DNA of 64,000 nucleotides from Psammoneis japonica (GCA_008632985.1 QPGO01000022.1:186001-250000); one strand, 5' to 3'; counted from the first letter of the stretch, positions 12,950-64,000 are shown. Made by a program: numbers and translations. Notes: generated from the letters alone by a model not told the origin.

Positions 12950-14600
12950 GCACCCCCTCCTTGGCCGCAGGCCTAGCTTCTCCCCACGATGTGTGGGGCA
13001 CCTGTTCCATGTTTAGGTTGTTGCATGATTAGAAACTTGGATTTTGAGCTTCTTCTTGGCCCGTTTTGCGGTCAGGCTGCGCAAGGCTGCATCCATCCTT
13101 CGCGCTGTCCTCGCGAATCCCTTTCATCCACCAGCGATGCACTTTGTGAATCCCAATCCACTGCACATGACTCTCATCACTTTGCAGTCCCAGGTTTTGT
13201 TGATTCTGGCTTTTTGAGTTTTGCAAAACCGCATTTTTGAGTGCAGGCATGTGTTGGTTGTGCGCATGTTCCGAGCCACAGGTGCCACGAAGATTCTGGG
13301 TTGAACATGTGATGCTCACCCGACCCACCATTCATGCGTGCAACAGTCAGCACCTTGGTCACTCAAAGACATGGCAACAACAAATTAAATTGCACCAACA
13401 ACAGCGTCAATTTTTCCACATCTCCAGAAGCCAAGCCATGTCATCTGCCTGAATGCAGGCAGTGTTGTGCACGTCAATGTGCCCAAACTGCGGGCGACAC
13501 AAAGGCTCTTTAACCAAACATCGCCGCTCACCCAAACCTTGCCAACCACAACTTGCAAAAGCAACAACACAACCTTGTTCATTCAAATGAATGGAAGCAA
13601 CTTGGGCAGTTGACAAAACTTGCCGACAGCCATCTGGAGCCAGCAAAGAATCAAGAGCCAGTGCACCCAGCCTTCCTCCTCTTCTTCTTCTTCTTGCCTT
13701 TTCAGTTGACCGTTTCCTCAATTTCTCTTTGTGTTCTCTCCAACTTTGCTCTTTCTGTCAGTGGACCATTTGCTTGGTTTCTCTCTTGATCTTTGGCTCT
13801 CTCAATCTCCAGCCCTCTCGAACGATCTTGAAGTCCACACCACCTCTCCACCAACTGAAATCTGCAATGGATGTGATTGTGCCAAATGCGAGAAATCCCC
13901 ATCATTTTCTTCTGCCACTGCTTTTGAATGGAAGGACACAGAAAACAGCGAGTGAGTGAGATGCGACAACATGGATCAAGAGCAGGTCAAGAAAGTCTGA
14001 AGTGCTGCAGAACCTTCATGAAAAGGGCACCATTGAGAGCACCTCCATCGGTCACCAGACTGGAGAAGAAGCACTCCATGTGCTTCAACACTTTGCAGAC
14101 AAGCAGCCCATCATCAGTTGCACGTCACTGTCTGTGAGCACTTGGCCCAAATGAAACAATCCCATCGCACTTCCATGCTGCGTTGCAAAGCATCATTCTT
14201 TTCATTTCAATTCGAGGCATGCTGTTGCACTCACACAAGAAGAAGCACACATGGGGGGGGGGATGCAAAGAACAAATTCCCATCACATCTTTAATTCAAT
14301 GAGAGCCCAATGTCTGATGGGTGTGCAAGGGTGTGCAAGAACACAAGATGACTCACTTTTGCAGAACAACTTTTCGCCAACAAACCCACGAAGTCAAGTG
14401 GAGGGGCAAACAGCAATTCGTGTGCCTTGTGAACACGTGGGCGCAGTCAGTCTGGTTTGATGTGACAGCCATTTTGAAACCGCCGATTTTGCATTTTGAA
14501 CCGAAATTGTGGGCGTTAGCAACGACTTTGGATGCATGTACCGGCATGGTAAATGGCAAGCAGGGTTACAGTGCATGTCTTGTCCGAACCATGCGACGTC
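12950..14600. mobile_element. Degenerate repeat-derived segment (TpA- and CpG-depleted), family not identified
   Basis: Abrupt switch to TG/CA-rich, TA-poor sequence, like the Copia block. No intact ORF or termini recognised. Boundaries are approximate. Confidence 0.45.
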
Positions 14601-19455: not shown

Positions 19456-19724
19456 ATTCACTGGTCGTTTTTCCGCATCTATGATGTGGGGCCATGGTGT
19501 TGTCGGTGAAGTGTGTTATTGGACATTAAAGAGGGGGGGGCATTTTTCTCTGTTGGACTGGGTACTTCATCGTAATCGTCCGTTCGTTTCAAAGAGACGT
19601 AAACTATGGGGGGAATCGTTTTTCCGCTGATGTATCACCCTTCTGTCCAAACACAACATCCGGGTGGTTTTGACAGCGAAACAGCGACAAAGTGACAACC
19701 AACACCAAAGGCGAGGACGACGCG

Positions 19725-20756: not shown

Positions 20757-21146
20757 AAAGCAAGCTAACACAGATAGTTACGGTTTACTCGTTTCCAATA
20801 GTATACTAAGTTCTTGCCGCCGTTGCATTACGTACTAGTACATCAAATCGATCGACTGCCGGTTTGTCGTCCTCTTCGCAATAAGAAAAACAGCGAAAAT
20901 GCCAACGCGACAAAGTTCCCTCCGACAGGTACGCCGCACGTCGTACATCTTCTACGGCCCAAATTGACAGCTTTACTCTCTGTGAACTTTGAACACTGTG
21001 AACACATCAAAACCTCTCCACTCGCTACACTGTATAGTAATAAGGATCGACATTCCCATTGTTGGGTTGCTATGCTCACTTCTTGTGGCCGTAATATCAA
21101 AAGGAGACCGCTATAGCACGTCTGATAGGTATCACCCGAAAATATT

Positions 21147-29517: not shown

Positions 29518-29933
29518 NNNNNNNNNNNNNNNNNNNNNNNNNNNNNNNNNNNNNNNNNNNNNNNNNNNNNNNNNNNNNNNNNNNNNNNNNNNNNNNNNNN
29601 NNNNNNNNNNNNNNNNNNNNNNNNNNNNNNNNNNNNNNNNNNNNNNNNNNNNNNNNNNNNNNNNNNNNNNNNNNNNNNNNNNNNNNNNNNNNNNNNNNNN
29701 NNNNNNNNNNNNNNNNNNNNNNNNNNNNNNNNNNNNNNNNNNNNNNNNNNNNNNNNNNNNNNNNNNNNNNNNNNNNNNNNNNNNNNNNNNNNNNNNNNNN
29801 NNNNNNNNNNNNNNNNNNNNNNNNNNNNNNNNNNNNNNNNNNNNNNNNNNNNNNNNNNNNNNNNNNNNNNNNNNNNNNNNNNNNNNNNNNNNNNNNNNNN
29901 NNNNNNNNNNNNNNNNNNNNNNNNNNNNNNNNN
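29518..29933. other. Assembly gap (416 N)
   Basis: Run of N bases. Confidence 1.
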
Positions 29934-30047
29934 GCTTGTTGCCAACACTTCTGTTTTTCAACGAACAGCTGAACTGAATCAACTGAACAGCGTGAACTGC
30001 ATCCAATCGACATCAGTAGAGAAGAAGTTGCCCGTCCCAAGAAAAAC

Positions 30048-36037: not shown

Positions 36038-39000
36038 TTAAAGCAATTCTTCTTGGTCTTCGTCGTCAGAATCACTATCAGCCGAAGAGTTCTGAAGCTT
36101 TGATTTGAGGTCATCGAGATCGCGCCTTTTCTGAACGTAAATAGAGTCGAGATATTCTTTTGTAACGTTCCGCTCTTTAAGCTCCTTCTTCTTTACTTCA
36201 ATGCTCTTCCCTAACAAACCGGCGTTTGGACAAACCAGCCGAATCAAGATCTTCAGCTCATCTCCCTTCAACGTCTCGTACTCACCGTACTGAGGCGTAC
36301 TGGAGCGAAGTGCATCAAACTCGTCGAGCGCTTTCGATTGCTTGGCGATGTCAGCCTTCAGTTTCGTTTGCTCTGCCTCTCCCACCTCGATCATCCTTGT
36401 CTTGGTACGGCGCACAGCAACAATTGCATTCTCACCTCGTGCTGTCTTGACAACGGCTCCACGTCTCTTCTTTTTGGGCGGTTGTTCGGAAGCACCCGCT
36501 GCGCCGGCAACCGCATCCTTTCGCTTGAAACCGGCAAGCACGTTCGATGTCGTTGTACGCGTTGCGACACTGATAGCGTTTACACCACTGCTATTCACCT
36601 CTACTTCGAAGACATCAATCATGGCGACATGTGGTTTCTCAATCATCTCTTTCAATTGCAAAAAATCCTGAAAAGAAAAGCTCTCACCAATTGTTTTCCC
36701 TTGTTGTTGTTGACACCAGACTTTAAACATTTCGTCGCGCTGTTCCGAAGCTTTCCGTTTTGCAGCCTCGATTGATGCTGTCTGCTCTCTCTGTCTCTGT
36801 TGCCTTTTGTGGAGATGCTCTCTTCTGGTTGCAGCAGGATCTTTCAGAAATTTTTTGGGGTCGACGCGGCACTTAGAAGCATCCAACAAATCGCTCTCGG
36901 TCACGATACGCTCAGTCCCATCTTCCAGCACCAGCTTCCAATTCGGATTGGTTTGGAGCGTAACAACTCCATCAAAGGTTGCACCAGTGGGATCAAAAAA
37001 TTGCACTTCAATGGCATCAATGAAAGGTCGCACCGAACGCAGCACCGTTGCAGTCCAATCTCGCGCGCGCTCCTCTTTCGTCTTTTCCGCCGCACGAGGC
37101 AGTGACGCCGCATCAGGCAAGTGATGTTGTACAAGTTGCATGGCCAGTTCTTCTTGTTCGCTTGTTGGCTCTGGTTTCTCACTCTTGCACTCTGTGTCCT
37201 CTCTCCATTTTGCCAACATTGATTTTGCCACTGGCATCGCGACATCCAAGTCGTGAAGCAGTGGGTCGTCGTCGTCGTCGTTGTAGCCCTCGCAGAGAAT
37301 ATTTCTCGATCTCTCAACAATGGCAATTCGTTTGTCAGGTGGGAGAGGCTCAATTTCCCACTCTTGTTTTTGTTGCTCTTGTGCTTGTTCCTCCTTTTCT
37401 CTTTGCGATTCCAGGGCGAGGTCGTGTGCGGTCCCCATTGTCTCTAGCACTTCCGTCCACGCCACGCAATCGGGGTTGATTGGCTCGAGTCCGGTTTCCT
37501 TCCAGGCACTTGTGCAGACATTGCTTCCTTTAGACAAGAGCTCAGCCTTCTCGGCTTCAAGGCAAGCCTTCCAAGCAGCGAGAAAAACTCGGTTTATCAA
37601 CCGCACTCCTTTTGCAAGACCGCTCTCGTACCTGACCCTCTTTGCCTCTTCCTCGATCTTGGCATGCAGGCGTTTGTTGACACCTCGATCGTTTGGTTGC
37701 GTCCAGATGGATGTGTGAGATGGTAGAAAAAAACAATGGACGTTGTGATCCCAGAAATGCTTGAGAGCGGCGCAGCACCAACGCGAGGCGTGTCCGTCGA
37801 GCAGCAGCATCGTGGCGTTCCTCATTCGTTCCTCGTCTGTCGCGCAACTTGTTTTTCCTTGACCCTTGGGAAGGTTCTTGCAGTGATGAATGGCAAAGTC
37901 GAGCATTGCATCTTTTTCCATACTTCCGTTTGTGGTTGTCCGGACATCAAAGCCGTGCGGGTTGTCGCTGAACTTGGCGTTGGGGTTTGGATTTGCTGGG
38001 GCGAGGCCGTCAAGATACATTTCACCAACAGCAGTCTCGTCTTCTGGAGCATTAACGCGGTTGGAATCATTGGTCTTCTTCTTGGATTTGGAGGCATGTA
38101 CAAGGAACGGCGGCGGGGCACCTTCAATTTCTTGGCACGGAATTGCGTTGACGCCTGCGGAGGCGGACGGGCACAAGGCAAGTGCATTCAACAATTATCC
38201 AGAGCAAGGTAGCAACAACAAATAAAGTAGCACCCCTTTACTTACCATCTGCTCTAGAAGTGATACACATGGTAAGATGATGGCTCATCTTGCCGTCGCC
38301 CTCGGGAGTCCTCTGAAAAATGCGTGACTTCTTCATGACCTCCTTGAAGACTGGCACTTTCTTGCGGCGTTTCGCAGCATCCATTGCAACTTCATCCATG
38401 TTGTATTTTCTAAAAGCCTCAAGCTTCTCAATGCAATCAACATCAATTTTACCTGTGGCATGGAGATGCTTCACAAAAGACTGCAACTTTGCAAAATGTG
38501 CGTCCCGAACCTCTTTCGTCCCCTGCTCAGCACGAATTGGGTCCAAACTTGAAGCTGAAGCTAGTTTTGCTAGCTTTGGATGGCGTTGGAGCATGGAGTA
38601 CACAAAATAATCAGACACAGATGGTTTTTCACGCTCATCAATGTGCTCATTAGCCAAGTCATTCACAATGTCAAGAATGGTGTCCTTTGATGCTCCGCAT
38701 CCCATCTGACCCAACCAGCAGCAAACTTCAACAACATGCTGCTCTTCGTCGTCAGTAAGAATTCTATTCCCCTTGTGCAAGGCAGTGATTGCCTCCTTTG
38801 CCTTCTTATCTTTCGCTCCAAAACAGTTGCAAATGGCTTCTTGTGCTTTCTCCACTGAAGCACTTTCTTGATGAAGACGACGAAGTCCACTTTGTCCCCA
38901 TGCCCGATTCAGGGTGTTGTAACGGGTGCTGTGCTCGGGGTGGACATTCTTGCAGTAATAGCTTAAAGAAACTCCATTGCCGTTTGCATAGAAGTCCATA

Positions 39001-40338: not shown

Positions 40339-42457
40339 TCGTGTTAGCTACGTTTTTGCATGAGCAAGGAAGCTATCCAAGCCTGTAAACATTTTCACAC
40401 GAGTCTCCAACGCATTTCATCCTGTAGTGCTGTACCGTACTTGTGTTTCATATCACTGCTTTGTGCTGTAGCACTCTTTATCGTGTTCTTGACGCGTACC
40501 TAGTTGTTTGAGCTTGTAAAACACACGATAGGTACGTTCAATTTTTTTTTTGGTGGAATTGACTCAAAAGTAAAGGATTATGTTTGAGAACAAAGCAAGA
40601 CAGTTTAAGACATGACTCGTTCCAATCAAATCTGCTCCGTGCTGGCGTAAATTCCCACCGCGGTGCCGGACTCGAATGCCTTTTCCTTCGCAGGTGGTGT
40701 CCCTCGCGGCCATCACTTATACTGTCACAATCACAAGAAGGCAACAAGCAATGCACCGTGATGCCACACGTGCGGCGCCGGGTCATTGATGGTTGTCATG
40801 ATTTCCTCTCACTGCTCTGTGGTTTTCTTCCTGCAGACCCAGACATTGTCACACCTTGTCAAGTGGCACACCAACTCCAAGATGGCAAGAAAGAAACCAC
40901 AGGTTGCACTGGGAGGTGCGAATCATGCTGTCTCAAGACTCCTGAGGCCCCACCAAGATGCTGAATGATGGTGTTGACAATCTGCACTGTTGGCCTTGTT
41001 TTGCAGCTTGTGTTTTGCCTGCAGCACAGCAACGATGTTGATTGAGGCTGAAAAAAACAGATGACTCCAACATGAGTGCAAGAACAACAAGGACAAGCTT
41101 CACAAGAAATGGTGGCAGCCAGCAACCTTGGCACCAGACAACGAGGTTGGCATCTGAGTTGTTGCCAAAGCAGATGGAAAAATCAAGATGGGAGTGTGGC
41201 TCTCCACAACTGCTTTGTGCATGTGCCAGAGGAGAAAGAGTTCATTGACACCAAAGCTCTGGATCTGGGTGGCCTGGCCCCATGCACCCCAGCCAGCTGT
41301 TCTTGATGACAGGAGATTGGCAACCAACCTTGCCATGGTGGTGCAAGTGGCATGAAAAAGCAGCAGCAGCATGGCCACCACTCTTTGAGCTCAAGTGTGG
41401 GATGTCATGTCACAGAGGCAGCAACAGAAGTGGTTGATTGCTTTCTTGTCCTTGAAAGTCCCAGATGCCTTGGCACACAAGCTCAAATTTACCACTTGCT
41501 TTTCAGCTTGTTTCTTGGCCCATCACCTCATCATCAAAGGGAGGCTTTGTCAAGGACAATCAAGCTGTTAAGCATGTCAGGGAAGACTGCTCTCTGACAG
41601 TCTTGAAAATTCCATGAAGACAACCCCACACAACAACAAGCCTCCCAGCAGCAAGAAAAACACTTGCTGCCTTTGCCACTTGCTGAGTTCAGGAAATGTT
41701 GCTGGTGGTGGGCAAGCCCACAACAAATGAAAGCCAAAAGGTTGTTGGAAACACTGCAGCAAAATTGTGCAGGTGAAACCAGAGCCATCACCAACCACAG
41801 AGTCCATCTTGCAAAAGGCGCATGTGCAATGTCCTGCAGCAGCTGCTGGGCTGGCTTTTTTCAGTGTGAGCCAACAACACACCATTGTTGCAGCTGAGCA
41901 CAGCTCCACTGCTGCTTTTAAAAAAGGGCACAGCAAGCAACTGGTTCCAAGAAATGGCCAATGCAGATGAGAGCATTGACAAACAACCTTCCCCAGCCAT
42001 GTTTTGTTTCTTGTCTGATCTCAACTGAGTGAGCTTTGCATCATCATGTCATCATGTTGTCATTTGTCACTGCTTTTGCCAAAGAGATGTTGCACCAAAG
42101 TGACACTTCAATGCCATCAAGGCAGAATGTTGAGTGTTTTTAGAGCTCTTGTTGGCACACAGAGCTGTCTTGGCAAGCAATCAACAGAGCTGCCCTGGTG
42201 CTCTTGCCATTGCTGGCATTTTCCTGCCACAGTCTGCCCTTGGATTGGCGACAACAGTGACATGGACGGTGACTCTTTGGCCATTGTTGTTTGTGTGAGG
42301 TTGATTGTGTGGGGTGACAATGGTTGTGCTGGCTGTTTTGTTTGTCAGCAATGCCATCACAAAATGGAGAAATGCAAGTTGGCTGCCACCTTCACAGCCT
42401 GGACAACCTTGCTGATGAGTGGCATGAATGCATTGACAACCTGGGAAGGTTGTTCAT

Positions 42458-42776
42458 TGTTGAAACAGCTGGAAGATGGGAAATTTGTGAGACCTGGACA
42501 TGTTGAAGAAAAAATGCTGTTGCTCCTGTGATGTGGAAGATGCAGCAACTCTTCATCATTGAAGTTCTTGCATCATCACCAATCTCTCCTGTCTCTTTGT
42601 TCATTTCATTCTTTGAAGTGAATCATGTGCTTTGTTGCAATCACATGATTCTGTCACATTGGCGCCACTGGGTGTCCATTGCATTGCAAGTTTGAAGTTT
42701 GCATCAACAACTTTGGGGCAACCTGCACAGCTGCTGCAAGCAGCCAATGCAAGCACAACAAGTGGTGCAGGAAGCC
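42458..42776 (+). repeat. 5' LTR-like direct repeat (partner 48964-49284)
   Basis: Starts TGTTG. Shares ctggaagatgg, gatgtggaagatgcagc, gtgaatcat, gccactggg.gtccattgca and caagtttgaag with the 3' copy. Confidence 0.8.
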
Positions 42777-45700
42777 TTGCAGGACTCCCTTGTCATGGTG
42801 GCATTAAATTGCTGGTTTAACCCACTCCAAAGAGTTGTTGGCACAACATTGGTGGTGCTCAACAATGCCACTCCACCTGCAGTTGACTGATTGCTCAGAA
42901 CATGTGCAATGAGTGGCAGAGGAAGTGGCAGAAGTGAAGCTGCATCCTCTGCCCCCCATTGACTGCTGCACCAAGCAAATGAAGCAGAAAGTGCAAGGCA
43001 GTCCTGCTTGCATGATGATTGGGGACAAGCCAATCAAGCCATTCAAGCTGATCCAGTCACAAGCTTTTAACTCAATGAGAGGTCAACACAAGCTTCGCAC
43101 ACTTGCCAGGTCCCTGCAGAACATGCTCAACATGAATTAACAAGAGTGCAAGTTGCTGAACAACTGCCTGTCAATGTTCAAGAACCAGCAAGATGCAATG
43201 TCTTGGCAAGGAGATGCCAAACACCAAATTCATTTTGAAGACCAAGGAACACAAGGATGGTGCAAAACAATGGAGCAGCATGAGATGAAGGAGGCAGCAT
43301 TCAAGACATGGATGACATGCCTGTTTGTAGAAAAAAGCAACAACTGCCATTGCAAGAGCTTGAAGAAGAACTTTGTCAAGGATTGCAGCATGAGATGGGA
43401 TGAATGTCCAAAGACCCTTGAGAATTCAATGGATGCACTGCCAGATCACCTGAAAGACAACAATCCTTGAAAGAGACACAACAAGAGGAATGATGAATGC
43501 ACGAATGTCAAGAACAAGAACAAGAGGTCCAATCATGTGAAGGACCAAAGCCATGCCCAGAGAGGCAATTAAAGTGACACCATGGTGTGCCGCTGTTGTG
43601 GGAAACTGAGTCACAAGTCCCCAAACTGCAAGCATTGAAGTGACATCACATTTGACAATTGGCTCAAAAACACTGGCAAGAAACTGGATGCCACCAGGGG
43701 ACAGAGTCATGCACAGAGATAAGATGAGGACATCTTGTTGGCAGACAGCAGCAGTGCTGACATTTGCACCAGCTGATGATCCAATTGACATCAACCCGCC
43801 CATTCAAGCCAAAGCAGAAGTGCTGTGTGGCACGCCTGACTGCAGCTGGCAAATGAGAAACCAGAAGCAAGCACAAACCCAAGTCAATTGAGACATCAGC
43901 ATGGATGAGATCATCCTTGACAATGGCTCTGCCCTCAGCACAGCAGCAAGCTGGAGATCAGCGCACAATGTGCGGCTGGCCAAGGTCAAGATTGACCTGT
44001 CCATGAGTGCAGGAGAGGGCACTCCAGACAAAGACTGCACCATGCCCAGATGGAGGGAGTGAAGCTCAGATCACAGAGTGCAACAGCCAAACATCCTCAG
44101 CTCAAAGGACATCAACAGCAAGCACTGCATTGCATGTGACAACCAAGCAGCAGATGAGTTCCAACTGCCAGACAAAAAGACTGGCAAGCAAGTTACGGTG
44201 TTCAAAGTTCACGACATTGGACTGCACACATTTGCACAAAGGCAGAAGGTCTTTGACCATGCAAAAGATCTCCAAGAAAGTGAGGTGCATGTGAGCATGC
44301 TGTTGAAGAAGAAGAAGAAGAAGAAGAAACTGGAGAGGAGGAGCAACGTGAAGCACAGGAGTGCATCAGCAGCTGTTGTTTTGATGGTGGAGCAGAACTC
44401 AGCAGACCACATGAAGATGCTGCACAGCAAAGCTGGAGCCCCCAGTGTGAAAGATTTCAAGTTGTTTTTATGATCAAACTAGGCAAAGAACTTGTCCATC
44501 ATGCTGGAAGACCTGGACAGAATGGCAGACATTTGGGGACCACCTGGTGATGCAACAAAAAGAAAGGCCAAACAAGTGCATCAATCCCATGAGAGGAAGA
44601 ATGACATTGTTGCCACACCACCTGAGATGCATGAGAAACAGTGAGATGGTGAAATCCTCTGTGTTGATGTCACACTTGGAAACACATCAACACACACAAT
44701 GCATTGGACACAATGCTGTGCCAGTGCAACATGGCTTTGTTCAAAATTGACTTTGTCAAGCATTGAGATCCCAAGTTCAAGGACATGCTGGAGAGGAAGT
44801 CACAGATGGTGTGAAACTGGAACTGACATCTACAACCACTGGTGGCCATGTTCCCAAAGTCCAATGCTGAAACATTGTGAGGCCTTCAAGGAACAAACTT
44901 GAGCCATGTTGTGCCACCTGCTGTGCAAGGTGATGCCCAAGCTGATGTGCAAGCATGCTGTGATTGAGAATGCCATGATGGCATGCATGCACTCAGAAAG
45001 AAGAAATTTCCAACATGTGCAGTCCACACACTGAAAACAACCTGATGAACATCACATGGGCATGTGTGGCATCATTGACAGAACATGCCTGCAACAACAT
45101 TTTGACATTCCCAAGGGTGACCACTGCACTGTGAACCTGCACGTGGGGAAACTGCTGAACCCCTGCAAGTGTGCTGCCACAACTCTGATCAATGCATGCA
45201 CACAAGGCTCAAGCAGTTGAGAAGATGGTCTCATCACAAGGCATCAAAGACTTCAAATTTGTGAGCAAATGTAGAGACAACCTGTGCAATGCCAGTTGGA
45301 CTGCAGGAGTGGACAACAACAAAAACTGCAGCAACAGCAAAGATGAAAGCAAGGACAAAAACAAGAATGAGCACAACAATGCCAACTGCACAACCAAGTC
45401 AGAAGACAAGGACTGCAAAGATGAGCCTGGCTTAGATGAAGAATGTGAAAAGCAAGCAAAATGCCAGCAGACAACAGATCCAGGCCTGATCAATGGCACA
45501 AGGACTGCAAAGACAAAGAACAAGAAGACTGCAAACAAGTCAAAGAGTCAGAATGAGACAGTGCACCTGCAGATGAGAAAAGAAGAGAAGCAAAACTGAC
45601 AGAAATTGCAAGTGAGATGCCAAGAAGAGTGAGAAAGAGCAGCACTGAGCTCAGCACATCCACAATGTGAAGTCACATGAACACAGAGAATGGAAAGTTC

Positions 45701-47529
45701 AATTTGCAGGAGAGCAGCCATCACAGAAATGCAACAACAGCAGAACAAACTTGACTGCTGCCATCACTTGAGGACAAACATCAGCCTCAATCCAGATGAC
45801 TGCATCAAATGCAATGCAGAAACAGGAGCGGCACTGGCACAATTCATGTGTGAGATGAATGGCTGGCTTTGATTGGGAAAGGGCATTTTCTTTGCCCAGA
45901 AGCACCTGTTGCACAAAGGCCTGAAAGCATTTGACCAGAGGGGGCATGTTGCATTGGAGAAGGAGATGAAACAACTCCATGACAGAGTGTGCTTTACAAC
46001 AACATTGACTGAACATGTGACTCTGACTGAGAGGACCAAGGCTGTGATCACCTCAATGTTCCCAATGGAGAAGCAAGACAGCCACACAAAAGAGCAAATG
46101 GCCTGCAATGGCAAACCAACCAGAGAATGGCTGGACTGGAATGAATCAGCTGGCCCAACTGCATCATTGGAAGGAACACTGATGACAGCTGTCATTGATG
46201 CTGTGGAAGAGTGCAACACAAGGAGTGCCAGTGCATTTGTGCAGAGTGCAGAGTGCAGACACAGATGCCAGAGCCCAAGGAAGGCAAAGACTGGATCATG
46301 ATGAAGATTGCAGGAGTGTTGGTTGACATGCCAGTGAGCATTGATCCCAGAAAAGTTCTCCATGTGCAAGTCATTGGAGACACATGTGGCATGTTGATCA
46401 CAGCTCTGCTGTGGCACAAGCAATTTTGGAAGGAAGACTTGGAAAACAATTGGGTTTGAGTTCAACCCATGCAACCCATGCATTGCCAAATGATTGGCTC
46501 AACAGCAAGCAGCACACTGTCTCTGTTTTCATGTCGACAACCTGTGTTGTCAAGCCACAAAAATTTCAAGGCTGGCCTGACAAGGTGTGCAGAAACCATG
46601 GCAAAGTTGTTGCACCAAGAGGAAAGAAACATGACCACCTTGGCATGATTGTGGACTTCAGCCACAAGAGCAAGGCAAAGGTTGACATGACCAGCTGCAC
46701 ACTCACAAGATGGTTGGTCAGTTTCCAGAAAAGATCAAGAGCACAGACACTGCCCTGACACCAGCAGGGGAGAACCTGTTTGACACTGGTGGCACTGGAC
46801 TGGCCACCAACAGAGAAAGTAAAGACACCCCACATGTGGGCAATCAAGGGGCTGTTTCTTTCCAAGAGGGCCCATGGACACACACCCAATCATTGCAGCA
46901 TCATGCACACAGGTCAGAGAGCATGCTGACAAGGATTGGGGAAAGCCAGTCTGTTGTGTCAAGCATTTGAACCCAATGTGAGACAAAGCAGCTGCATTGG
47001 TGAGCACAAAGAACTGCCAAATCATCAACAAAGATGGTGTGTGGATGCTTCATTTTCAGTGCACCTGGACTTCAAGAGCCACACAAGAGGAGTTGTGACC
47101 ACATGGGTGATGGAGCAGTCATGCAAGCCACATCAAAGTGCAGCAGAAGCTCAACACCCAAAGCAGCACAGAAGCTGAACTTGTGGCAGTCAATGACGCC
47201 ATGTCTGTGATGCTGTGGATGAAGCTGGTCATTGAAAACCAAGGCTGTCCAATTGGCAAGAATGTCCTGCAACATCAGGACAACAACAGCACCACACTGC
47301 TGGAAACCAACAGGCAGAGGAGTGCCAGAACAAGGTCAAGAGCACTCAACATTTAGCATTTCTTCATTGCCAATCAGATCAAGAAGGGCAACCTTAGAGC
47401 ACAGCATTGTGTCCAACCAACGACACAATGCTTGTTGGAAACTTCATGACTGAGCCATTGCAGGGCAAGAAGTTTTAAAAAAATTAAATGAGCCATCATG
47501 GGCTGTGGATGTCAAGCATGACGACAGAA

Positions 47530-47940
47530 GCATTTCCTGTTTGTGATGTCAAATGAGAGTTCTGACACATGTGGTTGAAAGATCCCTGCAACCCAGAAGA
47601 TGTGGCCAACCCTGTTGTTCAGCCAATCACAACCCACAGCAACCATGATGTTGACAATTGCACATGCTGGCTTTGCAAGAGAGCCACCAGAACATGACGT
47701 CAGTGAGTTTGATGAGCTGCGGGATGCATTCCAGGAGCATTTCCTGTTTGTGATGTCAGATGAGAGTTCTGACACATGTGGTTGAAAGATCCCTGCAACC
47801 CAGAAGATGTGGTTGGCCCCTGTTGTTCAGCAATCACAACCCACAGCAACCATGATGTTGATGACTGCACATGCTGGCATTGCAAGACAGCTGCCAGCTG
47901 CCAGAACATGTCAGCAAGTTTGATGAGCTGCACGATGCAC
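47530..47940 (+). repeat. Tandem duplication, period about 207 bp
   Basis: gcatttcctgtttgtgatgtca.atgagagttctgacacatgtggttgaaagatccctgcaacccagaagatgtgg occurs at 47530 and 47737. Confidence 0.9.
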
Positions 47941-48963
47941 TCATGCAATGTTGGCTGCAACATTGTTGGGGTGAGTTCAAGAGATTCTTGAATGAGGTGT
48001 CAGAAGATTTGACACTGGAGTGGTGTGGAATGTGGATGGCATCTTTGCACACATTGCCACCACTGGACCCCCGAGCATTTGCCAAGAGGTGACAGATGAA
48101 AACCTGCTGATGCTTGAACTCAGGAAGGATGGAAAGGTTGTCTGGACCATTGCCTGCAGAATGACAGAGAGGTGCAAGAAAGAACATGAAAAAAGATGGC
48201 ATCAGTTGTGGGCAGTGATGCACAAGAGACAATGCAGCATGTGCACACAGAAAAGTTGGGGCAGGCCAATGAAGCACAACATCAGTGCATGTCGCCACTG
48301 TTGTGCCAATGATCTCCCCACTTGACAATGAAGAAAAAGTGAGGACCACAGCCATGGATCATGCAAGAGAAGCACACAAGACCAAGAAATGTTGGCAGAT
48401 TGTTGGAGGTCAAGGCTTGGAATGTCACAAAAGGAAGGAACTCAACCATGGCAGCTCATCTGCAGCATTGATCACCATGGGACATGTGGAGTGCTTGTGG
48501 AATGCACTTCCAATCAACCCATGGAGATTGAAGAGTGGCAATTTGACCCAATGCAAGACAACAATGGTGCTGTCTGTGATGCATTAAGTTGGTGCAATTT
48601 TTTTAATGTCAAGTTATCAAGGTAAACCCAAACAGGATTGGACATGTCACAACATGGAGCCCTCTAATTTGGACCAATTGTGCATCAACAATTGGGTGAA
48701 AGCCCAATCAGAGATGTGGGTCTGCATGGCAGGGCTGTGAAAGAGAGGACTCATTGTGCTTGTGTGAAGTAATTTGTGGATTGGCAAGCAGGATCACAAA
48801 TGTGTTTGATGATGTGCTTGATGACCGTCACTGCAGATTTTGTGATCTGGAGGACAGCAGCATTGAGATGGCTGATGCACCTGGTGAGTCTGTTGTTGAC
48901 ATGCCACAAGGAAGTGCAGCACCTGAGCACTTTGGCAGAACATTGATGCAAGCAGCAGGAGTG

Positions 48964-49284
48964 TGTTGGAATCATGTCTGGAAGATGGTGGGAAACACAA
49001 GAGACCCAGATGCACTGAAAAAAGACATTGGCCATTGCTCTTGATGTGGAAGATGCAGCGACTCTTTGTGGTTGAAGTTGCATTGTCACTGATCTCTCCC
49101 ATCTCTTTGTCTGCCTCACTCTTTGGAGTGAATCATTTGGTTTGTCATGATTGTGCAATTCTGTGTTGTTGGTGCCACTGGGGGTCCATTGCACCACAAG
49201 TTTGAAGCTTGCATGGACAACTTCCAGGCAACCCACAGCCACTGCAAGTGGCCAAGGCAAGCACAACGAGTGGCACAGGAAGCC
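48964..49284 (+). repeat. 3' LTR-like direct repeat (partner 42458-42776)
   Basis: Follows a PPT-like motif, starts TGTTGG and aligns with 42458-42776. Confidence 0.8.
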
Positions 49285-51914
49285 CTCTGGTGACATTTTA
49301 ACTCTTTGTTTGCCAGAACGGATTAGAATGGGTTTTTTCACATGGCGTGCGGATGCACACAATTTTTCACGACATGCACCCACCACACACCACAATGGTG
49401 GTGACGCCAATGGCCGCAACAATGCAGCTGCACTCACCGTTGTTGCAGAACCACCATGGTGGTTGATGTCCTCCAATTTCCAACAGTGTTTTTGATTTCA
49501 ATGTCGTGGTTGCTGTCATTGCCAATTTTTCCTCTGCAACAATTTGACTGTGTTCACATGCGGCTGCTGTTGTTGCCGCTGTCTGAGACATTGCAGCCGT
49601 GAGTGTGCCTTGAATTGCAGAAGGGGGGCAAAAGAGATGCAGGTGAGCTTTTTTTTCAGCATCAAAGCAAGTTGCATTGCTGTCTCTTGCATTGTTGTTT
49701 GTCACTCAATGCATTTGAAGCAATGCCTTGGCATTGCGTGCCAACAAACATTGTCTGTCTTTTCATTGTTTGCTTGTTGCATCAGAATTTTTTCAGAGCA
49801 CACCGTTGATGCCATGGCAGCATCACAGCATTGCCTTTTTCTCTGATTGATGCTTTGGTGTGGATGCCAAAGGAATGGCGAGGGTGCACACAGAGCAGCC
49901 AGCCACAGCATCCTCAGTTGCAGCAGCGGCTGAGCAGAGTGTCAGCAAAAGGGTTTTGTGCTGTCTCTAAGAGTCCACAGCTTGAGATGAAATCAGGCAA
50001 GTTGCCTTTTTTGTTCTTGACAAACTGTCAATCACCCACCCACAAAATGTGACAAAACACAGAAGAAGAGAAGAAATCAGAGTGCATGCTGCGGTTTGCC
50101 AAAAAGAAATGCGTGGGCGGGATGCACGCGTCATCACTGACACAACTGTGGTGCGCAGGGACTTCGACTCACCTCCACAACTTGCTGTCATCTTCCCAAT
50201 GCCTTTAAATTTGTGAGTGACAAAAACAATTGTCAGCATTGATGAAAAAGCCAGCACTCTTGCGCACCTGAATGTCCCATCGACGGCACTTGGCCGTCAA
50301 ATTGTCAAGCCCCCAGCAGGATTGCCTGCAAGAATGCGTCGACAGGATGAACAGCACATTGGCAAACAAACATGACGCGCCAATGCACCAAGCAGCTTCC
50401 ATGCCGTAGATTTGCTTGAACTTAAGCAGGCATTTGAACACGGTGTTCCAAATGCAGAAACCACTCAAAGCCAAGCAAATCTAGGTTCGCCTCACGGTCA
50501 GACAACAGATTCTTTCTGGGGCCCTGCGTTTCTTGTCGCATTGCTGGGTCTTTGCCAATTCTCTGCATTCACAAAAGGAGCACGTTGTGTGACTGCCAGA
50601 ATCTGTTGTGGGATGTCCTGATGAGGCATGAGCCTCATGTTTTGTGGAGAGTGCAAGGCAACTCGTCGGTTGCTCATAGTCTGAAGACAACTGTTCCCTG
50701 CTGAAAAGCCAAAACAAGTGCCACGACAAGCAATGTCAGCTGAGGGAATGTGCAATGCAAAAAAAGACATCCCGACACAACAGAGCAACAGTTCTGTGCT
50801 GCACTCTAACCCATTTGTTTAACATCCCACCAGATTCCACCAGTGGGACATTGAAAATGACAGCACCATTTCTGTTGACATTGGTCCTCTGTTGCAATGC
50901 ATGAAAGCTGATGCGAGCCGGTGAGAAACCACAATCAAAAGCAAAACAAGAAACCTGTCCAAGCTGTCACAGTGCACCTTGCCACATTAAAAATCACACC
51001 ATGTGGTGCACAGAGACATGCTTGCTGTCATCCACGTCCATCATGCTCACACCACAAACGACCGTGGTTGCGCACTGAAAAGCATGAAAAAGCAGCATGA
51101 CAAGTGAGGGTTAGCTGAGGGATCATGGCACATGAAAAATGACACTCCAATGCAACAAAACAATGCTGTTGTGTTTTGTGCTTGCACAGTCATTTGACAC
51201 TCCACCAGATTCTGTCCTGCGGATGACGAAAACGACAAACCGATTCTGTTGCTGACAGTCGGTCACACTGTTGCGATGCAAGAAATGCCGCTGCAACAGC
51301 AGGTGAGTGAAGAAGTGAAAAAACAATGCCAACACAACAACAAATCAAACCAAGCTGTCATGTGACACCTTGCTGTGTTGATGATCACCCCGCATGGCAT
51401 GGGGGTGCCATCCATTGCAATGACAATGGCAACACCCCATTTGTTGTGTTGTTGATGGTGGTGATGTTTCGCCGCACGCCAAAAAAAAATCGCACGCGTG
51501 TCGCTGTGGCAAAGAAAGAGTTAACTTGCCAGCTCAACAGTCATCTGTCACTGTGTGGATGCACACAGCAAATGCAGCCTTGTTGACAGACATGTTCCAG
51601 CTCTGCTGTCCATTTGGCAAAACAGCTTCCAAGCTGAAAACAGCAGCGCCATCTGTCTCACAGCTGCCTGCAGTTCTTGGGCACTGAAGCTTCATCAGCC
51701 CATGCACCTGAGAGAGTGACTTGCACAGATGGTCCAGGAGGAGGCAGCACTGGCCCCATTCATTGTGTGGTCATCAGGAGATGGAAAGAACTGTCTCAGC
51801 AGAATTCATGCAGACACCATCATTTTGCTTGGGAGACTCAAAAAGTTTGTTGTTGAATGTTTTAGCAGGAAAACAGCTGGGGTGCATTCCAGCCCCAGGC
51901 AGAAGGGCTCCATG

Positions 51915-52795
51915 TGACATTGAGCTGACAAAGTTGCATGTTGGTGAACAAGCCAACAATTGACAACAGAAAAAGAGGCAATTTTGCAGCTGAACAGGCT
52001 TGCCCATGCTCAAAGTGTGTTGTTTGTGATTTGCCTGGGTGTGCTCTGCAGACATTGAAAAATGTGCCCAACACCAAAGCCCTTTTTGTTCTCATGAATG
52101 GGTGTGACAAAATGCCTTGCTGGCTTTGCAAGGAACAAAAACAGCTTTTCTGCAAAAGAGCAACCACAGAAATGCACACAACACAGAGTGCTTGGTGTGC
52201 AATCTAAAAATGTTCATGTCACACAGTCTCCAGCAGTGCAAAACCCCACCCAGAGCTGGAGCTGGAGTGCGTGTTGCTTGTGTGTCCCACAAACAATTGA
52301 TCTTTAGAAAGGATGTGGAAGACTCAATCTTTTGATGATGAGAGTTGGCTCTCACTCAACCAAGTGTGAAATTTTGTCCTGGAAATGATTGTGCATGACA
52401 AGCTTTCCTCACATGATGGGTGGCAAAAAAAGCAAGCAGCTGTTGCCAAATGGGTGGCAGGCAAGACCTCAGTCACACTGGCTGCTTTGTTGTGACATGA
52501 ATGTTTTTGACAATGTGCTTGTGCACACACACACCCATGTGCACTCTTTTGTGAAATTGTTCCATGCTCCCTGTTTTGTGAAGCCAAAGGCTTTTTAGCA
52601 CCACCATTTGCAAAAACACAAATGGGCTGTGGGTGCATTCTTTGGTGTCTTCAGAGTGTGCCTGGGCAAATCAGCAAAGGCATGCTTCAAGCATGGGTGA
52701 GCCCACTTTGTCACATGGCTGCTTCTTTTCTTCTGTTGGTGATCATCGCCCCATTTGCCACCTTTGACAACTTGGCTGTGGGAGCTCATGTGCGC
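51915..52795. repeat. Diverged inverted repeat, arms about 51915-52240 and 52470-52795
   Basis: The reverse complement of 51963-52072 (..cagagcacacccaggcaaatca..ctttgagcatgggcaagcc..) aligns with 52630-52738 (..cagagtgtgcctgggcaaatca..cttcaagcatgggtgagcc..). Confidence 0.75.
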
Positions 52796-53970
52796 TGTGC
52801 TCGAAGAACGAGTGCAAACAAAAGTGGAGCAAATCACAAAAAGTGGAAAATTGTGAGGTTGAATTTTGTTCTTTGATTTCTTTGGGTTTCTCTGAAGGAG
52901 CTCTCAATGGCCTGGACTGTTTGCGCTGCTTTTGCAGACAACAAAAGGCCTCATGGAGAATCGTCTCATCATGAAAACAGATTTGGTCTGGGTGTGGTTG
53001 GTGTTGACATCTCATGTGTCAAAACATTGTCTGCCGCCAATTGTGTTTGCAATTTTTGACATCTGATCAAATCTGTGTGACCAATGCATCCACAATTGTG
53101 GCATGATTAACACACACAATGACGTGCAACTGTGAATGTGCACATTGCTTTCTTTTCTGTGCGCGACAACGCACGCTGCACATGTGCAGACTTCTGTGGG
53201 CACCCAGTGCTGGCCCCGTGCACAGCTCCACCTGCTGCAGCTGGAGGCAGCGCATCACCAGCACTGAGAAGAAGAAACACATCATCAAGAGCCAGCATCA
53301 CCACGGCCAGTGTCAAGAAATGCACACACACGACTGATGACGACCCTCAGCCAAAGAAACAAGCAAAAGAGGAAGAGGGCTGAGAGGAGGAAGGAGCAAG
53401 GCTGACAGAGTTGTGGAATTTTTGAAAGTCAACCAAAGAAAGTCAAAACATCTGAAAAAAAGCTGAGGAGGGCAGTGATTGATTTGGTGAGTTGTGTGGT
53501 TGGCCCTCCCTGCTTTGCTGGGCTCGCCCATGTGGCGGCCACACAGCCACCCACCATCCCCTGCTGGAAGAGCGGCGCTGTTGCGCCTGGTCAACATTCT
53601 GCTTTAAAAAGGAGAAGAACATTGCCATGGTGGAGGAAACAAAATTTGCCAAGGCCAGCAGGAAAGCCAAGTGTTTGAAGTGGCAGCGCTGCGCAGCCAC
53701 AGAAAAGTGCTTGGTGCCAGATGGCAGCCAAGACAAGAGTTGGCCCACTTTCCACTTGGGTCATTCTTCATGAAAAGCACTGGGTCTCTAACAAAGAGCT
53801 TGCAGCTGGTGGCAAAGAGAAAATGAGTGTGTGGCACCACTTGTGAGGTCCCTTGCTGACAGCCTTGAAATCCTCAGTTGCGACCTTGCGCTGGAAAAGC
53901 AGCCAGTCAAAGACTGTCTGACAAATGTTTTCAGAGAATCAACAATTACTTGACCATCGAGAGGTATCCG

Positions 53971-54043
53971 AGGGGTTTAGCTCAGTTGGTAGAGCGCGTG
54001 CTTAGCATGCACGAGGTCGGGTGTTCGAATCATCCAATCTCCA
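53971..54043 (+). tRNA. tRNA-Ala (anticodon AGC)
   Basis: D arm GCTCagttggtaGAGC, anticodon arm CGTGC-ttAGCat-GCACG, T arm GGGTG-ttcgaat-CATCC, acceptor 3' AATCTCC-A with G3:U70. The first pair is mismatched, possibly from a lost G in the homopolymer. Confidence 0.93.
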
Positions 54044-61916: not shown

Positions 61917-62107
61917 TGGCACATGACCAATGATCTGAATGTCTTGCTATTTTGGAGCTGGGAGAGGAGTCAGGCAGGTTTCTAACAACGAGTAGGCCCT
62001 CACAGTGTAGGAGTAGTACTCTCTCATCTCTACTAGAGTCAGTCATACGTACCTACAGTATCGTATGTTTCGCATTCTGGCACATGACCAATGATCGGAA
62101 TGTCTTG
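61917..62107 (+). repeat. 30-bp direct repeat pair (61917-61946 and 62078-62107)
   Basis: tggcacatgaccaatgatc(t/g)gaatgtcttg, 29 of 30 bases identical. Confidence 0.9.
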
Positions 62108-64000
62108 TGGAGAAGACCAATGCCTTCTTCCTCTCTCCAGATGAATTTGCCAGAGCAGCAAGAGACACTGTCTTTGGATGCACATGCACGTGCTGCATTT
62201 TTTCAGCACAAAAGTTACGTAAACCACTTCATCAAAAGCAGCGCGTTGTGGGATTGCCAGAGACTGTTGCAGGATGCACTCACGCAGCATCTCCAGAGCA
62301 CAAAACACACAGCACTTGCACGCGACTTCATCAGGGTCATCACCAGTGGCTCGTGGCTCATTTTCTCTCAAGTGTTGCAGCCGAGATCTCCGTGGAACAG
62401 GCGCAGTGATGAAGCTTGCGGTCAACAGACTTGCTTGCACCATGTCTTCCACAAGACGACGACCTGGCTGTCCCACCCACCAGGTGAGGCCAACGAAAGA
62501 ACAACAACGAGGCAGTTGAGCCTCATTGTTTCGATTGTGACATTGCTGTTGCAGTCGAAACGATTTGTTTTCATGACAAGTGGTCATGTCTCTGCCTGTT
62601 GTGGCTGCACCCAACCCCATCAACTGCGAGACCATTTGTGGGTCCATGCCGGACCCATTGGCCGGAGACTGTCAAGCTCATTTAGAGCCTTTCTTGGCTG
62701 AGAGCGCCGAGGCCCCAGCTGCCCTGCGTGATGGCATGCTCATGGCTGGCAACAAGGTTCTCAAGGTCTTTGTGCACCTCGTGGGTGAGCCCACACCCAT
62801 TGTTCATGTGGTGCACCACACGATGTGCTGCACTCCTGTGCCAGGCCTCGCTGTGCCTTGGGACAACCGCTCTCACACTCTGGCTTCAGACATCAGCCCG
62901 AGCAACCAGGAGAGGTTGTGGTCATTGCCTGGACAGTCAACCCATTTGCATGCACACAACTGGTGAGAGTGCCCACCCCAAATGATGTGCAAAATCAGTG
63001 GGCAGCCATGGCTGGAGCAGACTGCCTCGGGCCCTGTGCCGCTGGGGAGCCCCACGTCAAGGAGGTGCGCACACGTTTCTTGGTGCCAACCCCGCCAGCC
63101 TGCTCGTCCCTCACTGCAGCCTGGCAGAACTTCACTCCACAACAGCTCTGGACAGATGTCATCCAACTCATCATTGCTGATGGTTGGGGAGCGGTGTGTG
63201 CCCCTCTGCTCGATTGGGCACACATGCAGCCTGCACTTGTCACACTGGCAATGCTGTGGGTGATCCAGACCAACCACCCACTGCATCACTGGCCATCCCC
63301 ATGGCCCCTGTTGCAGATGCATGTCTCAATCATTGTGTGTCTGGTCATGGCTCACTCAGGACTTGCCTGCTCTTGCCAATCATGCGGGCACCACGAATGC
63401 CATCCTGACCCACAGATGCTTCAGGCCATGCACACAGAGTTTGCCCAGCAGCACACCTGGGCTGCTGCCGCTTGCACCACAGAACATGCCCCAAAGTCAC
63501 CCACCAAAAACTCCCTCAGACAGTTGCTGGCATCCGTTGCATGTGTGAGGTCAATGCCAATGCAGGCTTGCCCGAGATGTGGCACATTCTTGCCGGGGCC
63601 AGCAAAGCGGAAGCTGTTTCCTCCATCCAAGCAATCCTGAATCAATGGGCACAGCAAGTTGGCACCACTTCCAATGCCCCCATCCTTGCACTGGAGCTGT
63701 TCAAGGGCCTGAATGGTTTTCAGCTGGGCAGCGCCGACCCTCAAGACTTCAACAGTGGACTGAGCATCTTTCTGACAATTGCGGGAACGAGCACCCAGTC
63801 CCAGCAAGCACCCACCCGCTCTTTCATCTTCCAGCAGTTGCGTGCCAGTGGAGCCATGCCGGCACTTTTGGACATGGTGCAATTTAACAACTTGGCCCCC
63901 ATCATCTCTGACAGTGCACTGAGTTTCCTGAGAACCTGCTGTGCCTGCGGCATCCTCCTCCTGGAGGTGGTCCCAGGACCAGCTCATCACCTGTTGCAGT
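62100..64000 (+). mobile_element. Decayed TpA/CpG-depleted element, possibly ORF1/gag of a diatom retroelement; runs off the window
   Basis: Same compositional signature as the Copia block. Broken plus-strand ORF with VRVPT..GPCAAGEPHVKEVRTRFLVP..FTPQQLW..ADG..CAPLLDW, reminiscent of diatom retroelement ORF1 from memory only. Confidence 0.5.

Follow-up and report, generated by a model that had tools for sequence, protein, structure and literature searches.

We report here that a block of about 13.2 kb within a 64,000-nucleotide stretch of DNA (QPGO01000022.1:186001-250000, hereafter the window; all positions are counted from its first letter) has lost nearly all of its TpA dinucleotides and most of its CpG dinucleotides, and that these were converted to TpG or CpA in chromosomal DNA after the affected sequences had inserted, singly and on either strand. 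Judged from its repeats and protein similarities, the block is probably a nest of dead mobile elements, a 6.8-kb Ty1/Copia long terminal repeat (LTR) retrotransposon plus other repeats, in a diatom-like genome. In its spectrum the TpA part of the loss is a separate process, an A:T to G:C transition at an A that follows a T, and we are highly confident that it is a real mutation of DNA that is directed at TpA and confined to transposable elements. The depleted DNA in the window is as follows:

40781..53945, no strand assigned: main depleted block, ~13.2 kb, nest of dead repeats, flanked by a TIM-like gene and a tRNA gene (TA/CG counts and position lists)
13031..14516, no strand assigned: second depleted block (TA 3 versus 100 expected, CG 41 versus 85)
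62100..64000, no strand assigned: third depleted block, which continues past the end of the window (TA 4 versus 93 expected, CG 54 versus 146)

With expectations taken from base composition, 40800-53930 contains 49 TA (884 expected) and 121 CG (744), and 1523 TG (745) and 1590 CA (882). The original prediction for this DNA, made from the sequence alone, relied on a hand count of TA and CG in 41041-47520 and on a large excess of TG and CA there; the exact values are 23 TA (429 expected), 20 CG (363), 716 TG (335) and 838 CA (465), which match the hand count and bear out the excess. It also took flanking genes such as DapB to be normal, and the 1062 bp DapB open reading frame (ORF) does have 27 TA and 61 CG. 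Its statement that the same state recurs near 13 and 62 kb was right for TA, and for CG the loss there is only partial (see the counts above). Across 41-49 kb the observed/expected (o/e) ratios of 1-kb intervals are 0.02-0.09 for TA, 0.02-0.13 for CG and 1.87-2.09 for TG/CA, and those of the remaining intervals (leaving aside the three depleted blocks, 36.9-38.1 kb and the 29-30 kb interval, whose composition statistics are skewed by a 416-base N run, an assembly gap, at 29518-29933) are 0.32-0.99 for TA and 0.65-1.24 for CG. Position lists of TA and CG show that the edges of the main block are sharp to ~60 bp: on the left the final TA is at 40720 and the final CG cluster stops at 40779, and on the right TA reappears at 53947. 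Loss of TpA is fuller than that of CpG in four sub-blocks, among them 49.3-51.5, 13.0-14.5 and 62.1-64 kb. No recognizable ORF was found in 13031-14516, and 62100-64000 has two long ORFs without a Pfam match.

Only TA and CG of the 16 dinucleotides have strongly lowered o/e ratios in the depleted DNA relative to the flanks, and TG and CA are raised. The lesser shifts (GC up, 1.31 versus 1.02; TC down, 0.84 versus 1.17; GA down, 1.00 versus 1.14) are by-products to be expected of the loss of TA and CG. AA and TT are not depleted, with o/e values of 1.11 and 1.25 in the depleted DNA and 1.16 and 1.13 in the flanks, and the background TA o/e of the flanks is 0.58.

What kind of DNA is it that has been depleted? 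Plain BLASTN of the window against itself gave almost no repeat pairs, and Pfam recognized no transposable element domain in ORFs of at least 100 amino acids, in six-frame read-through translations (X at stops) or in 400-amino acid pieces. Recoding of the nucleotides as purine or pyrimidine uncovered a pair of LTRs that are 93.5% identical in that code versus 77% identical as nucleotides. The read-through reverse transcriptase frame between them had 19 homologues in a large protein collection (E values 4e-34 to 5e-17), 18 of which carry PF07727, and the tblastn matches of the homologues between the LTRs follow the Copia order of gag, protease/integrase, then reverse transcriptase and lastly RNase H. 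The earlier labeling of this DNA as Copia is upheld by these homologues and this order, and the main element is a dead Ty1/Copia retrotransposon with a reverse transcriptase of predicted RVT_2 type. Its parts, and the other repeats of the main block, are:

42475..49286, + strand: degenerate Ty1/Copia LTR retrotransposon, 6.8 kb (LTR pair and tblastn; TA 25 versus 453 expected, CG 25 versus 378)
42475..42778, + strand: 5' LTR (purine/pyrimidine-coded BLAST pair with the 3' LTR)
42967..43760, + strand: gag remnant (tblastn to homologue residues ~109-426; CCHC zinc-knuckle spacing seen by eye in the read-through translation)
43860..44700, + strand: protease/integrase remnant (tblastn to homologue residues ~400-720)
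45200..46835, + strand: reverse transcriptase remnant (tblastn, and the above E values against PF07727 proteins)
46865..47510, + strand: RNase H remnant (tblastn to the homologues' C-terminal 200 residues)
47525..47942, + strand: tandem duplication of 2 x ~208 bp (87% nucleotide identity, 94.8% in purine/pyrimidine code; 4/51 pyrimidine-purine, or YR, steps TG/CA-discordant)
48987..49286, + strand: 3' LTR (purine/pyrimidine-coded BLAST pair with the 5' LTR)
50699..51418, + strand: direct repeat pair 50699-51028 and 51073-51418 (81.9% purine/pyrimidine identity; 20/56 YR steps discordant)
51942..52760, no strand assigned: inverted repeat pair 51942-52180 and 52524-52760 (85% purine/pyrimidine identity; 22/46 YR steps discordant)

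The tandem duplicate at 47525-47942, by its few discordant steps, arose after most of the TA and CG had been lost. The homologue-aligned codons of the Copia element contain 40 in-frame stops (32 TGA, 5 TAA and 3 TAG) among 1861 codons, a set that contains overlapping alternative alignments. When near-identical mutated copies were sought among proteins, no match was nearer than 54%, and a scan of viral contigs found no relative.

Is the TA poverty of the Copia element native to it or the result of mutation? Tyrosine codons require TA, and so the element was compared with its homologues at 29 positions, namely those with Tyr in 60% or more of at least five homologues. The element has Tyr at none of them; 12 are Cys (TGY), 11 are His (CAY), 3 are Phe and 3 are other residues. 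Other conserved residues are largely retained (Phe at 27/41 positions, Trp at 8/11, His at 11/15 and Cys at 10/14), and the Tyr content of the homologues is normal, 2.9-4.7%. Arg positions have changed to the products of CpG loss, CAA (6), TGY (3), TGA (2) and CAT (1).

The two LTRs of one element are identical when it inserts, and their differences therefore accumulated in place. When aligned they agree in 225 columns and differ by 61 transitions, 11 transversions and 10 gaps. At the YR steps we find TG opposite TG 22 times, CA opposite CA 20 times and TG opposite CA 20 times (20 of 62 discordant), with three further steps that involve CG; the TG/CA swaps supply 40 of the 61 transitions. Such a swap results when a TA or CG of the ancestor is resolved independently in the two LTRs, through a change on either strand, and the discordance means that the changes were made in chromosomal DNA after insertion and on both strands. 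RNA-level A-to-I hyperediting of the ADAR kind before integration was considered and rejected, since editing of RNA or cDNA prior to integration is ruled out by LTRs that differ (20 of 62 YR steps) and by strands that are equally affected. Small inversions as the source of the swaps were likewise rejected, as adjacent TGCA/CATG and CACATG/TGTGCA swaps fit independent dinucleotide changes; two differences, CCAA/TTGG near 47610 and TTTGTG/CACAAG in the LTR, resemble reverse complements.

The third test is that of DNA outside the blocks. Four introns (377 nt, defined by spliced contigs of a spliced-looking run, X2) have o/e values of 0.82 for TA and 1.05 for CG, thirteen intergenic stretches have TA o/e values of 0.39-1.24, and the boundary between codon positions 3 and 1 has 0.61 for TA and 0.91 for CG. 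Because all three keep TA and CG, the loss is not a genome-wide neutral equilibrium, and within this window it is local to mobile DNA. X2 has zero cover on 40.7-49.3 kb and 50.7-54.0 kb, which is not evidence of silence. The Tyr, LTR and intron/intergenic tests agree and demonstrate that the block originated by mutation.

Which TA sites are lost depends on the bases around them. For each NTAN class, survival was measured by comparing the depleted DNA (16.6 kb) with the flanks (44 kb). TTAA survives almost untouched (0.94; 23 versus 65), CTAA/TTAG survives at 0.29, GTAA/TTAC at 0.10, ATAA/TTAT at 0.04, and all others at 0-0.07; ATAC/GTAT (0 versus 261), ATAT (0 versus 128) and GTAC (0 versus 146) have been erased outright. 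RTAY accounts for 1 of the 57 TA that remain in depleted DNA versus 535 of 1731 in the flanks. A flow estimate, which presumes that the 4-mers of the flanks are those of the ancestor and that CG is split 50:50 between TG and CA, sends TA before A to CA only, TA after T to TG only, ATAC chiefly to ATGC and ATAG chiefly to ACAG. The trinucleotide balance matches this flow (TTA/TAA -11.7 per mille, TTG/CAA +24.9 and TCA/TGA only +11.2). In the window, then, the TpA process is strongest where a pyrimidine follows (RTAY, which holds for both strands); it is weaker at TAG and does not act at TAA, which is why TTAA survives. By the simplest rule the process targets an A that stands in 5'-T-A-N (N = C > T > G, but not A), or equivalently the T in 5'-(not T)-T-A. 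The fates of Tyr codons by preceding base are small numbers: after G 8 became His and 2 Cys, after A 1 became His and 5 Cys, and after T 2 became Cys and none His. For CpG, TCGA has the lowest survival (0.11) among the ten symmetric classes in the window. The TG and CA outcomes do not cluster along the block (runs test z -1.4; flanks z -0.3 to -2.1) and so give no sign of processive single-strand events. Strand-coordinated events were rejected for this reason, there being no runs in the block or in any of the ten copies of the metagenome family described below.

Does the same spectrum occur elsewhere? Scanning metagenome contigs with the homologue alignment yielded 80 Copia loci; a Tyr/Phe position was among the patterns by which loci were selected, so that copies with heavy mutation probably escaped the scan, and no locus has a TA o/e below 0.32. 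Ten of the loci (L051, L054, L062, L063, L064, L069, L071, L073, L075 and L077) form a family of copies 84-93% alike, in which changes were polarized by column majority. There TA became TG in 41 of 510 cases (8.0%) and CA in 40 of 510 (7.8%), and the reverse changes are at 0.4% (TG to TA) and 1.6% (CA to TA). Of the 108 changed cells at TA, 81 are TA to TG or CA and 27 are other changes, including 14 TA to TC transversions among the 510. By context, A to G is at 7.7% in TAA, 11.7% in TAC, 4.6% in TAG and 6.1% in TAT, versus 0.6-3.0% in the other 12 contexts, and C to T is at 20.2% in TCG, 12.1% in ACG, 9.7% in GCG and 6.9% in CCG, versus 0.8-4.1% outside CpG. Twelve TA sites have TG in one copy and CA in another, without strand runs. 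L069 has a TA o/e of 0.32 (2 RTAY and 8 TTAA among its 43 TA), and its conserved Tyr have become Cys or His at 7 of 15 positions in a frame that is still open. This family is an independent replicate of the polarized spectrum, milder than the window. A family of 14 control loci showed no TA effect (TAN 2.7-5.2% versus 0.9-6.1%), where subfamily structure weakens the polarization; the polarized excess of TA to TG or CA is present in the 10-copy family and lacking in the 14-locus one.

Four other loci show decay of CpG only, with CG o/e values of 0.22 (L039), 0.15 (L047), 0.12 (L028) and 0.26 (L044) and TA at 0.58-0.76. In L047 Arg is mutated at 13 of 34 positions and Tyr is kept at 30 of 33, none having become Cys or His, and L028 and L044 are alike in this. 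The four serve as negative controls, with methylation-type CpG decay in other hosts, and the retention of Tyr codons by L047, L028 and L044 supports a second process distinct from CpG decay. That such a process makes A:T to G:C transitions at TpA had been proposed from the window alone, and the Tyr to Cys/His changes, the LTR discordance and the spectrum of the related family all support it. As a side observation, the majority sequence of the 10-copy family has 3 RTAY among 53 TA (~6%), versus 31% pooled over the 80 loci, although its Tyr codons have been retained. Perhaps an active element avoids a motif that is hypermutable, or the bias may simply reflect codon usage; the RTAY fraction over the 80 loci is confounded by codon usage and serves as a hint only.

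The sequence of the window was compared with contigs of a public run, X1, in which 78% of sampled window words occur and which may derive from the window's own sample. Over the main block its contigs are ~99.5-99.8% identical to the window, with few differences and a single-copy depth of ~56-73; a 6697-nt contig spans 39078-42711, with 6 letters that differ from the window. The sequence is thus found in a second assembly as well, but X1 is possibly the source of the first, and so its agreement shows consistency and does not prove the bases independently.

The differences between the window and X1 also bear on whether the process is still at work. Of 159 variants 36 were examined, with four at 38.0-38.3 kb set aside, and 33 are in 40781-48900. 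Among these 33 listed, at least 4 of 29 TA sites are altered (three TA to CA and one TA to TC), versus ~0.2% of other positions, and at least 3 of 29 CG sites, all CG to TG. In five others listed a TG or CA of the window stands as CG in X1, and in one a TG of the window stands as TA; an adjacent TG to CA swap makes up one more, and 18 are elsewhere across ~8 kb. Adjacent double differences are seen at 42941-42942, 43261-43262 and 44984-44985, one of them an exact TG to CA, in DNA whose overall divergence is ~0.2-0.5%. Discordance at YR steps in the three old repeat pairs (20/62, 20/56 and 22/46; pooled 62/164 = 38%) exceeds the 20% expected from one random resolution of the flanks' share of TA plus CG (p=1.5e-7). 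With residual TA and CG sites that vary and discordance in excess, hypermutation in the blocks appears to be still running. A continuing process, in which an ordinary transition remakes TA or CG and this is soon resolved again, fits these values; an ancestor richer in TA and CG than the flanks would likewise raise the pooled discordance.

The original prediction knew of no described pathway with this spectrum, a statement that has been overtaken by an April 2026 preprint on hypermutation, at TpA only, of integrated viral DNA in the chlorarachniophyte Bigelowiella natans (Mettrop et al., bioRxiv 10.64898/2026.01.13.699255). According to the main text of that preprint, 231 of 302 nuclear point mutations in mutation-accumulation lines fell in two integrated viral regions, and 230 of the 231 were A to G or T to C, all at TpA. 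The rate was ~6e-7 per site per generation, in some lines only; TpA-depleted coding sequences were enriched in DDE and reverse transcriptase domains; and the authors propose an ADAT2-like DNA adenine deaminase (bioRxiv 10.64898/2026.01.13.699255). That system and ours share changes that are almost only A to G or T to C at TpA, giving TpG or CpA, a restriction to foreign DNA, a lasting depletion of TpA with gain of CpA plus TpG, and a suspected deaminase. They differ in that B. natans is a rhizarian with giant-virus and virophage inserts, mild depletion (Rho TpA 0.45) and a directly measured rate, whereas here the host is diatom-like, the targets are an LTR retrotransposon and other repeats, and depletion is near saturation (o/e 0.05). 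Here CpG is lost as well (see the counts above), so that the change is not GC-ward only, and RTAY is lost and TTAA kept. The main text of the preprint is silent on CpG, trinucleotide context and diatoms.

How might such changes be made? In the explanation that we prefer, a candidate nucleic-acid deaminase of the TadA/ADAT2 type would be directed to silenced foreign DNA, where it would convert the adenine of 5'-TA to hypoxanthine, which would then be copied as G. A TadA-like DNA adenine deaminase with a TA preference, the second model of the original prediction and the same hypothesis as for B. natans, would fit the spectrum observed here. The CpG part would be the usual decay of methylated cytosine, perhaps favored further at TCG, and a second, separate process of this kind is the likeliest account of the CpG co-loss. 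The identification of the agent as an adenine deaminase is tentative, and we put it clearly below an even chance; the explanation as a whole (a nest of dead elements, in-place conversion of TpA and CpG, and a candidate deaminase) comes just short of even in our estimation. A wider proposal is rather doubtful, namely a single defense arm conserved across SAR (a diatom-like stramenopile and the rhizarian Bigelowiella), in which a TadA/ADAT2-type deaminase guided by silent chromatin would target the A of 5'-TA(Y) and the C of 5'-TCG and would run continuously, re-erasing new TA and CG, with active retrotransposons avoiding RTAY.

Several points weigh against our explanation. The sparing of TTAA is not reproduced in the 10-copy family, where TTAA is changed in 5 of 40 cases and TAA stands at the 7.7% given above. 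X1 may be from the same sample as the window, which would leave the bases without independent proof, and the flow estimate depends on the two presumptions stated with it. Summed X1 depth (counting contigs at least 90% alike) is 612-2242 on 51340-53340, with its maximum on 52.0-52.7 kb, where the inverted repeat pair lies, versus ~56-63 in single-copy flanks, which implies that many copies share the TA-free sequence and that the depletion there is partly inherited; the TA-free repeat at 51340-53340 has been amplified after, or despite, reaching its mutated state. In the portions of the report on amphioxus ADAT2 that bear on adenine, that enzyme favored GAA and not TA (PMC10354150), and, as noted, the main text of the B. 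natans report does not speak of CpG loss (bioRxiv 10.64898/2026.01.13.699255).

The changed base could instead be the thymine. As the spectrum is strand-symmetric (12 Cys and 11 His in the window, 41 TG and 40 CA in the 10-copy family), A to G and T to C are indistinguishable, and a TET/JBP-type dioxygenase or other enzyme might alter the T in 5'-(not T)-T-A of silenced DNA (e.g., to 5-hydroxymethyluracil or 5-formyluracil), with mispairing to G then giving T to C. In dinoflagellates 5-hydroxymethyluracil is concentrated at TpA and TpC, and 5-formyluracil forms mispairs with G. We consider thymine modification unlikely nonetheless, for our literature search gave no report of such a base in diatoms, transitions dominate here although oxidized thymines give transversions too, and the authors of the one precedent with a measured rate interpret it, in the main text, as adenine deamination (bioRxiv 10.64898/2026.01.13.699255).

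Error-prone repair, in the form of Pol eta acting on WA motifs, was one of the two original suggestions: where T:G mismatches or base excision are frequent, as in methylated repeats, they would draw a low-fidelity polymerase, which would insert G opposite T at TA. TA is a hotspot of Pol eta in somatic hypermutation, TpA loss in the window is always accompanied by at least partial CpG loss, and the 14 TA to TC transversions of the 10-copy family would suit such a polymerase. However, AA and TT are undepleted although WA includes AA, nearly all the changes are transitions (23 of the 29 Tyr positions, with at most three A to T), TpA loss exceeds CpG loss in four sub-blocks, and Copia relatives with strong CpG decay retain their TA (Tyr at 30/33 in L047). 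The Y-family polymerase encoded in the window is kappa-like and has no known link to the block. The suggestion is thus disfavored, and we regard repair as quite improbable.

Could TA and CG instead decay everywhere by a neutral bias, with selection alone preserving them in genes and regulatory DNA and the dead repeats at neutral equilibrium? A compact genome leaves little DNA outside repeats free of constraint, and the background TA o/e is merely 0.58, but the introns and codon 3-1 boundaries described above keep TA and CG, intergenic TA reaches 1.0-1.24, and the block edges are sharp within ~60 bp; such a bias is very improbable. Still less likely is that the elements were free of TA and CG before they spread. 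The high summed depth of contigs at least 90% alike on 51.3-53.3 kb and the copying of the tandem duplicate after most of the loss are in its favor, but for the Copia element it is excluded by the Tyr test, the LTR discordance and the normal Tyr content of the homologues, and a working Copia protein cannot do without Tyr codons. Finally, an artefact of modified-base miscalls or assembly error, for which one can point to a single assembly with an N gap and to X1 as perhaps its source, is scarcely credible, given that long X1 contigs reproduce the sequence, that a symmetric miscall would yield a TG/CA mixture at each site and broken contigs (neither is seen), and that in-frame Tyr to Cys/His changes and the same spectrum in unrelated metagenome contigs would be unexpected.

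Our preferred explanation, targeted mutation of mobile DNA in place, has partial likenesses in several other known systems. Repeat-induced point mutation (RIP) of ascomycetes also makes dinucleotide-specific transitions at the DNA level that are limited to mobile or repeated DNA and wreck reading frames, but RIP turns CpA into TpA and enriches A+T, the direction opposite to that seen here, as had been pointed out from the start. The RIP indices confirm this: TpA/ApT is 0.064 in depleted DNA versus 0.64 in the flanks, (CpA+TpG)/(ApC+GpT) is 2.0 versus 1.2, and G+C is unchanged; unlike in RIP, there are also no strand-coordinated runs. The portions of a diatom report that concern methylation describe a DNMT4 akin to RID and document methylation of transposable elements in diatoms (PMC9998398). 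The CpG decay of methylated transposons resembles the present case in its CpG to TpG/CpA changes in repeats and explains only the CpG half of it. TCG hypermutation has reportedly been seen in basidiomycetes; the likeness here is that TCG is the hottest CpG context of the 10-copy family (20.2% versus 6.9-12.1%) and TCGA the CpG class of lowest survival in the window.

As to enzymes, TadA, ADAT2-3 and the adenine base editors have the A to I chemistry, read as A to G, that we propose. The tRNA target of TadA and ADAT2-3, A34, follows U33, and we know of no demonstration of natural DNA editing at TA by an enzyme of this type. Amphioxus ADAT2 does deaminate DNA, at the C of TCG and also at A, in the portions of the report cited above (PMC10354150). 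Pol eta (in phase 2 of somatic hypermutation) and ADAR likewise cause host-driven mutation of A:T with a preference for 5' T/U, and APOBEC3 mutates retroelements. Here, unlike with Pol eta, AA is spared and transversions are rare (A to T at no more than 3 of 29 Tyr positions), and editing of RNA or cDNA before integration, as by APOBEC3 or ADAR, can neither split LTRs nor affect the strands equally. In our literature search we met no description of transposons of diatoms or other algae that have lost TpA, and none is given in the portions of PMC2806351, PMC3145265 and PMC9998398 that deal with such elements.

The remainder of the window has the following features. By its ORF map the 64 kb is a eukaryotic locus of compact build (48% G+C), whose ORFs are long and for the most part free of introns. 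The closest named relatives of its class-V aminotransferase are those of Cylindrotheca, Nitzschia, Fragilaria and Pseudo-nitzschia (~59-62% identity), and by these similarities the host is probably a diatom or near kin. The gene that adjoins the right edge of the main block is:

53971..54043, + strand: tRNA-Ala(AGC) gene, 25 bp outside the edge (ARAGORN)

Its position could mean that insertion occurred beside a Pol III gene or that the tRNA gene is a chromatin boundary. An open 718-aa ORF on the minus strand at 36038-38194 has a weak DDE_1 match, a TA o/e of 0.17-0.37, normal CpG and 1.0% Tyr. It was considered as hypermutated and rejected, its TA poverty being read as amino-acid composition (normal CpG, low Tyr); it may be a domesticated transposase, and X1 depth on 38.0-39.3 kb is ~10x single copy. 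On the plus strand at 29973-32213 two adjoining ORFs both match the AlgH-like family DUF179, which suggests a tandem gene duplicate. At 19674-23209, also on the plus strand, an NTH1/endonuclease III-like glycosylase (HhH-GPD) gene lies beside a gene for a Pol kappa-like Y-family polymerase, which is split over two overlapping frames and so probably has an intron. These two (19.7-23.2 kb) are housekeeping repair genes, and no link between them and the hypermutated block was found.

Hypermutation of A:T to G:C at TpA has been known before only from the one 2026 preprint on one chlorarachniophyte. What the observations above contribute is a host that is diatom-like, a target that is a retrotransposon, saturation of the depletion, the accompanying loss of CpG and a rule for the flanking bases. 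In addition, an LTR pair proves that chromosomal DNA is acted on once insertion has taken place, and there are signs that the process continues to run. For annotation they carry a warning: such elements evade Pfam and BLASTN, and purine/pyrimidine recoding recovers them. The RTAY/TTAA rule is the pattern that any candidate enzyme must reproduce, and whether eukaryotes have a natural DNA adenine deaminase of this kind becomes directly testable in genetically tractable organisms. The footprint, saturated in this diatom-like genome and milder in an unrelated set of environmental contigs, suggests that the process is widespread among major marine algae and not peculiar to one strain.

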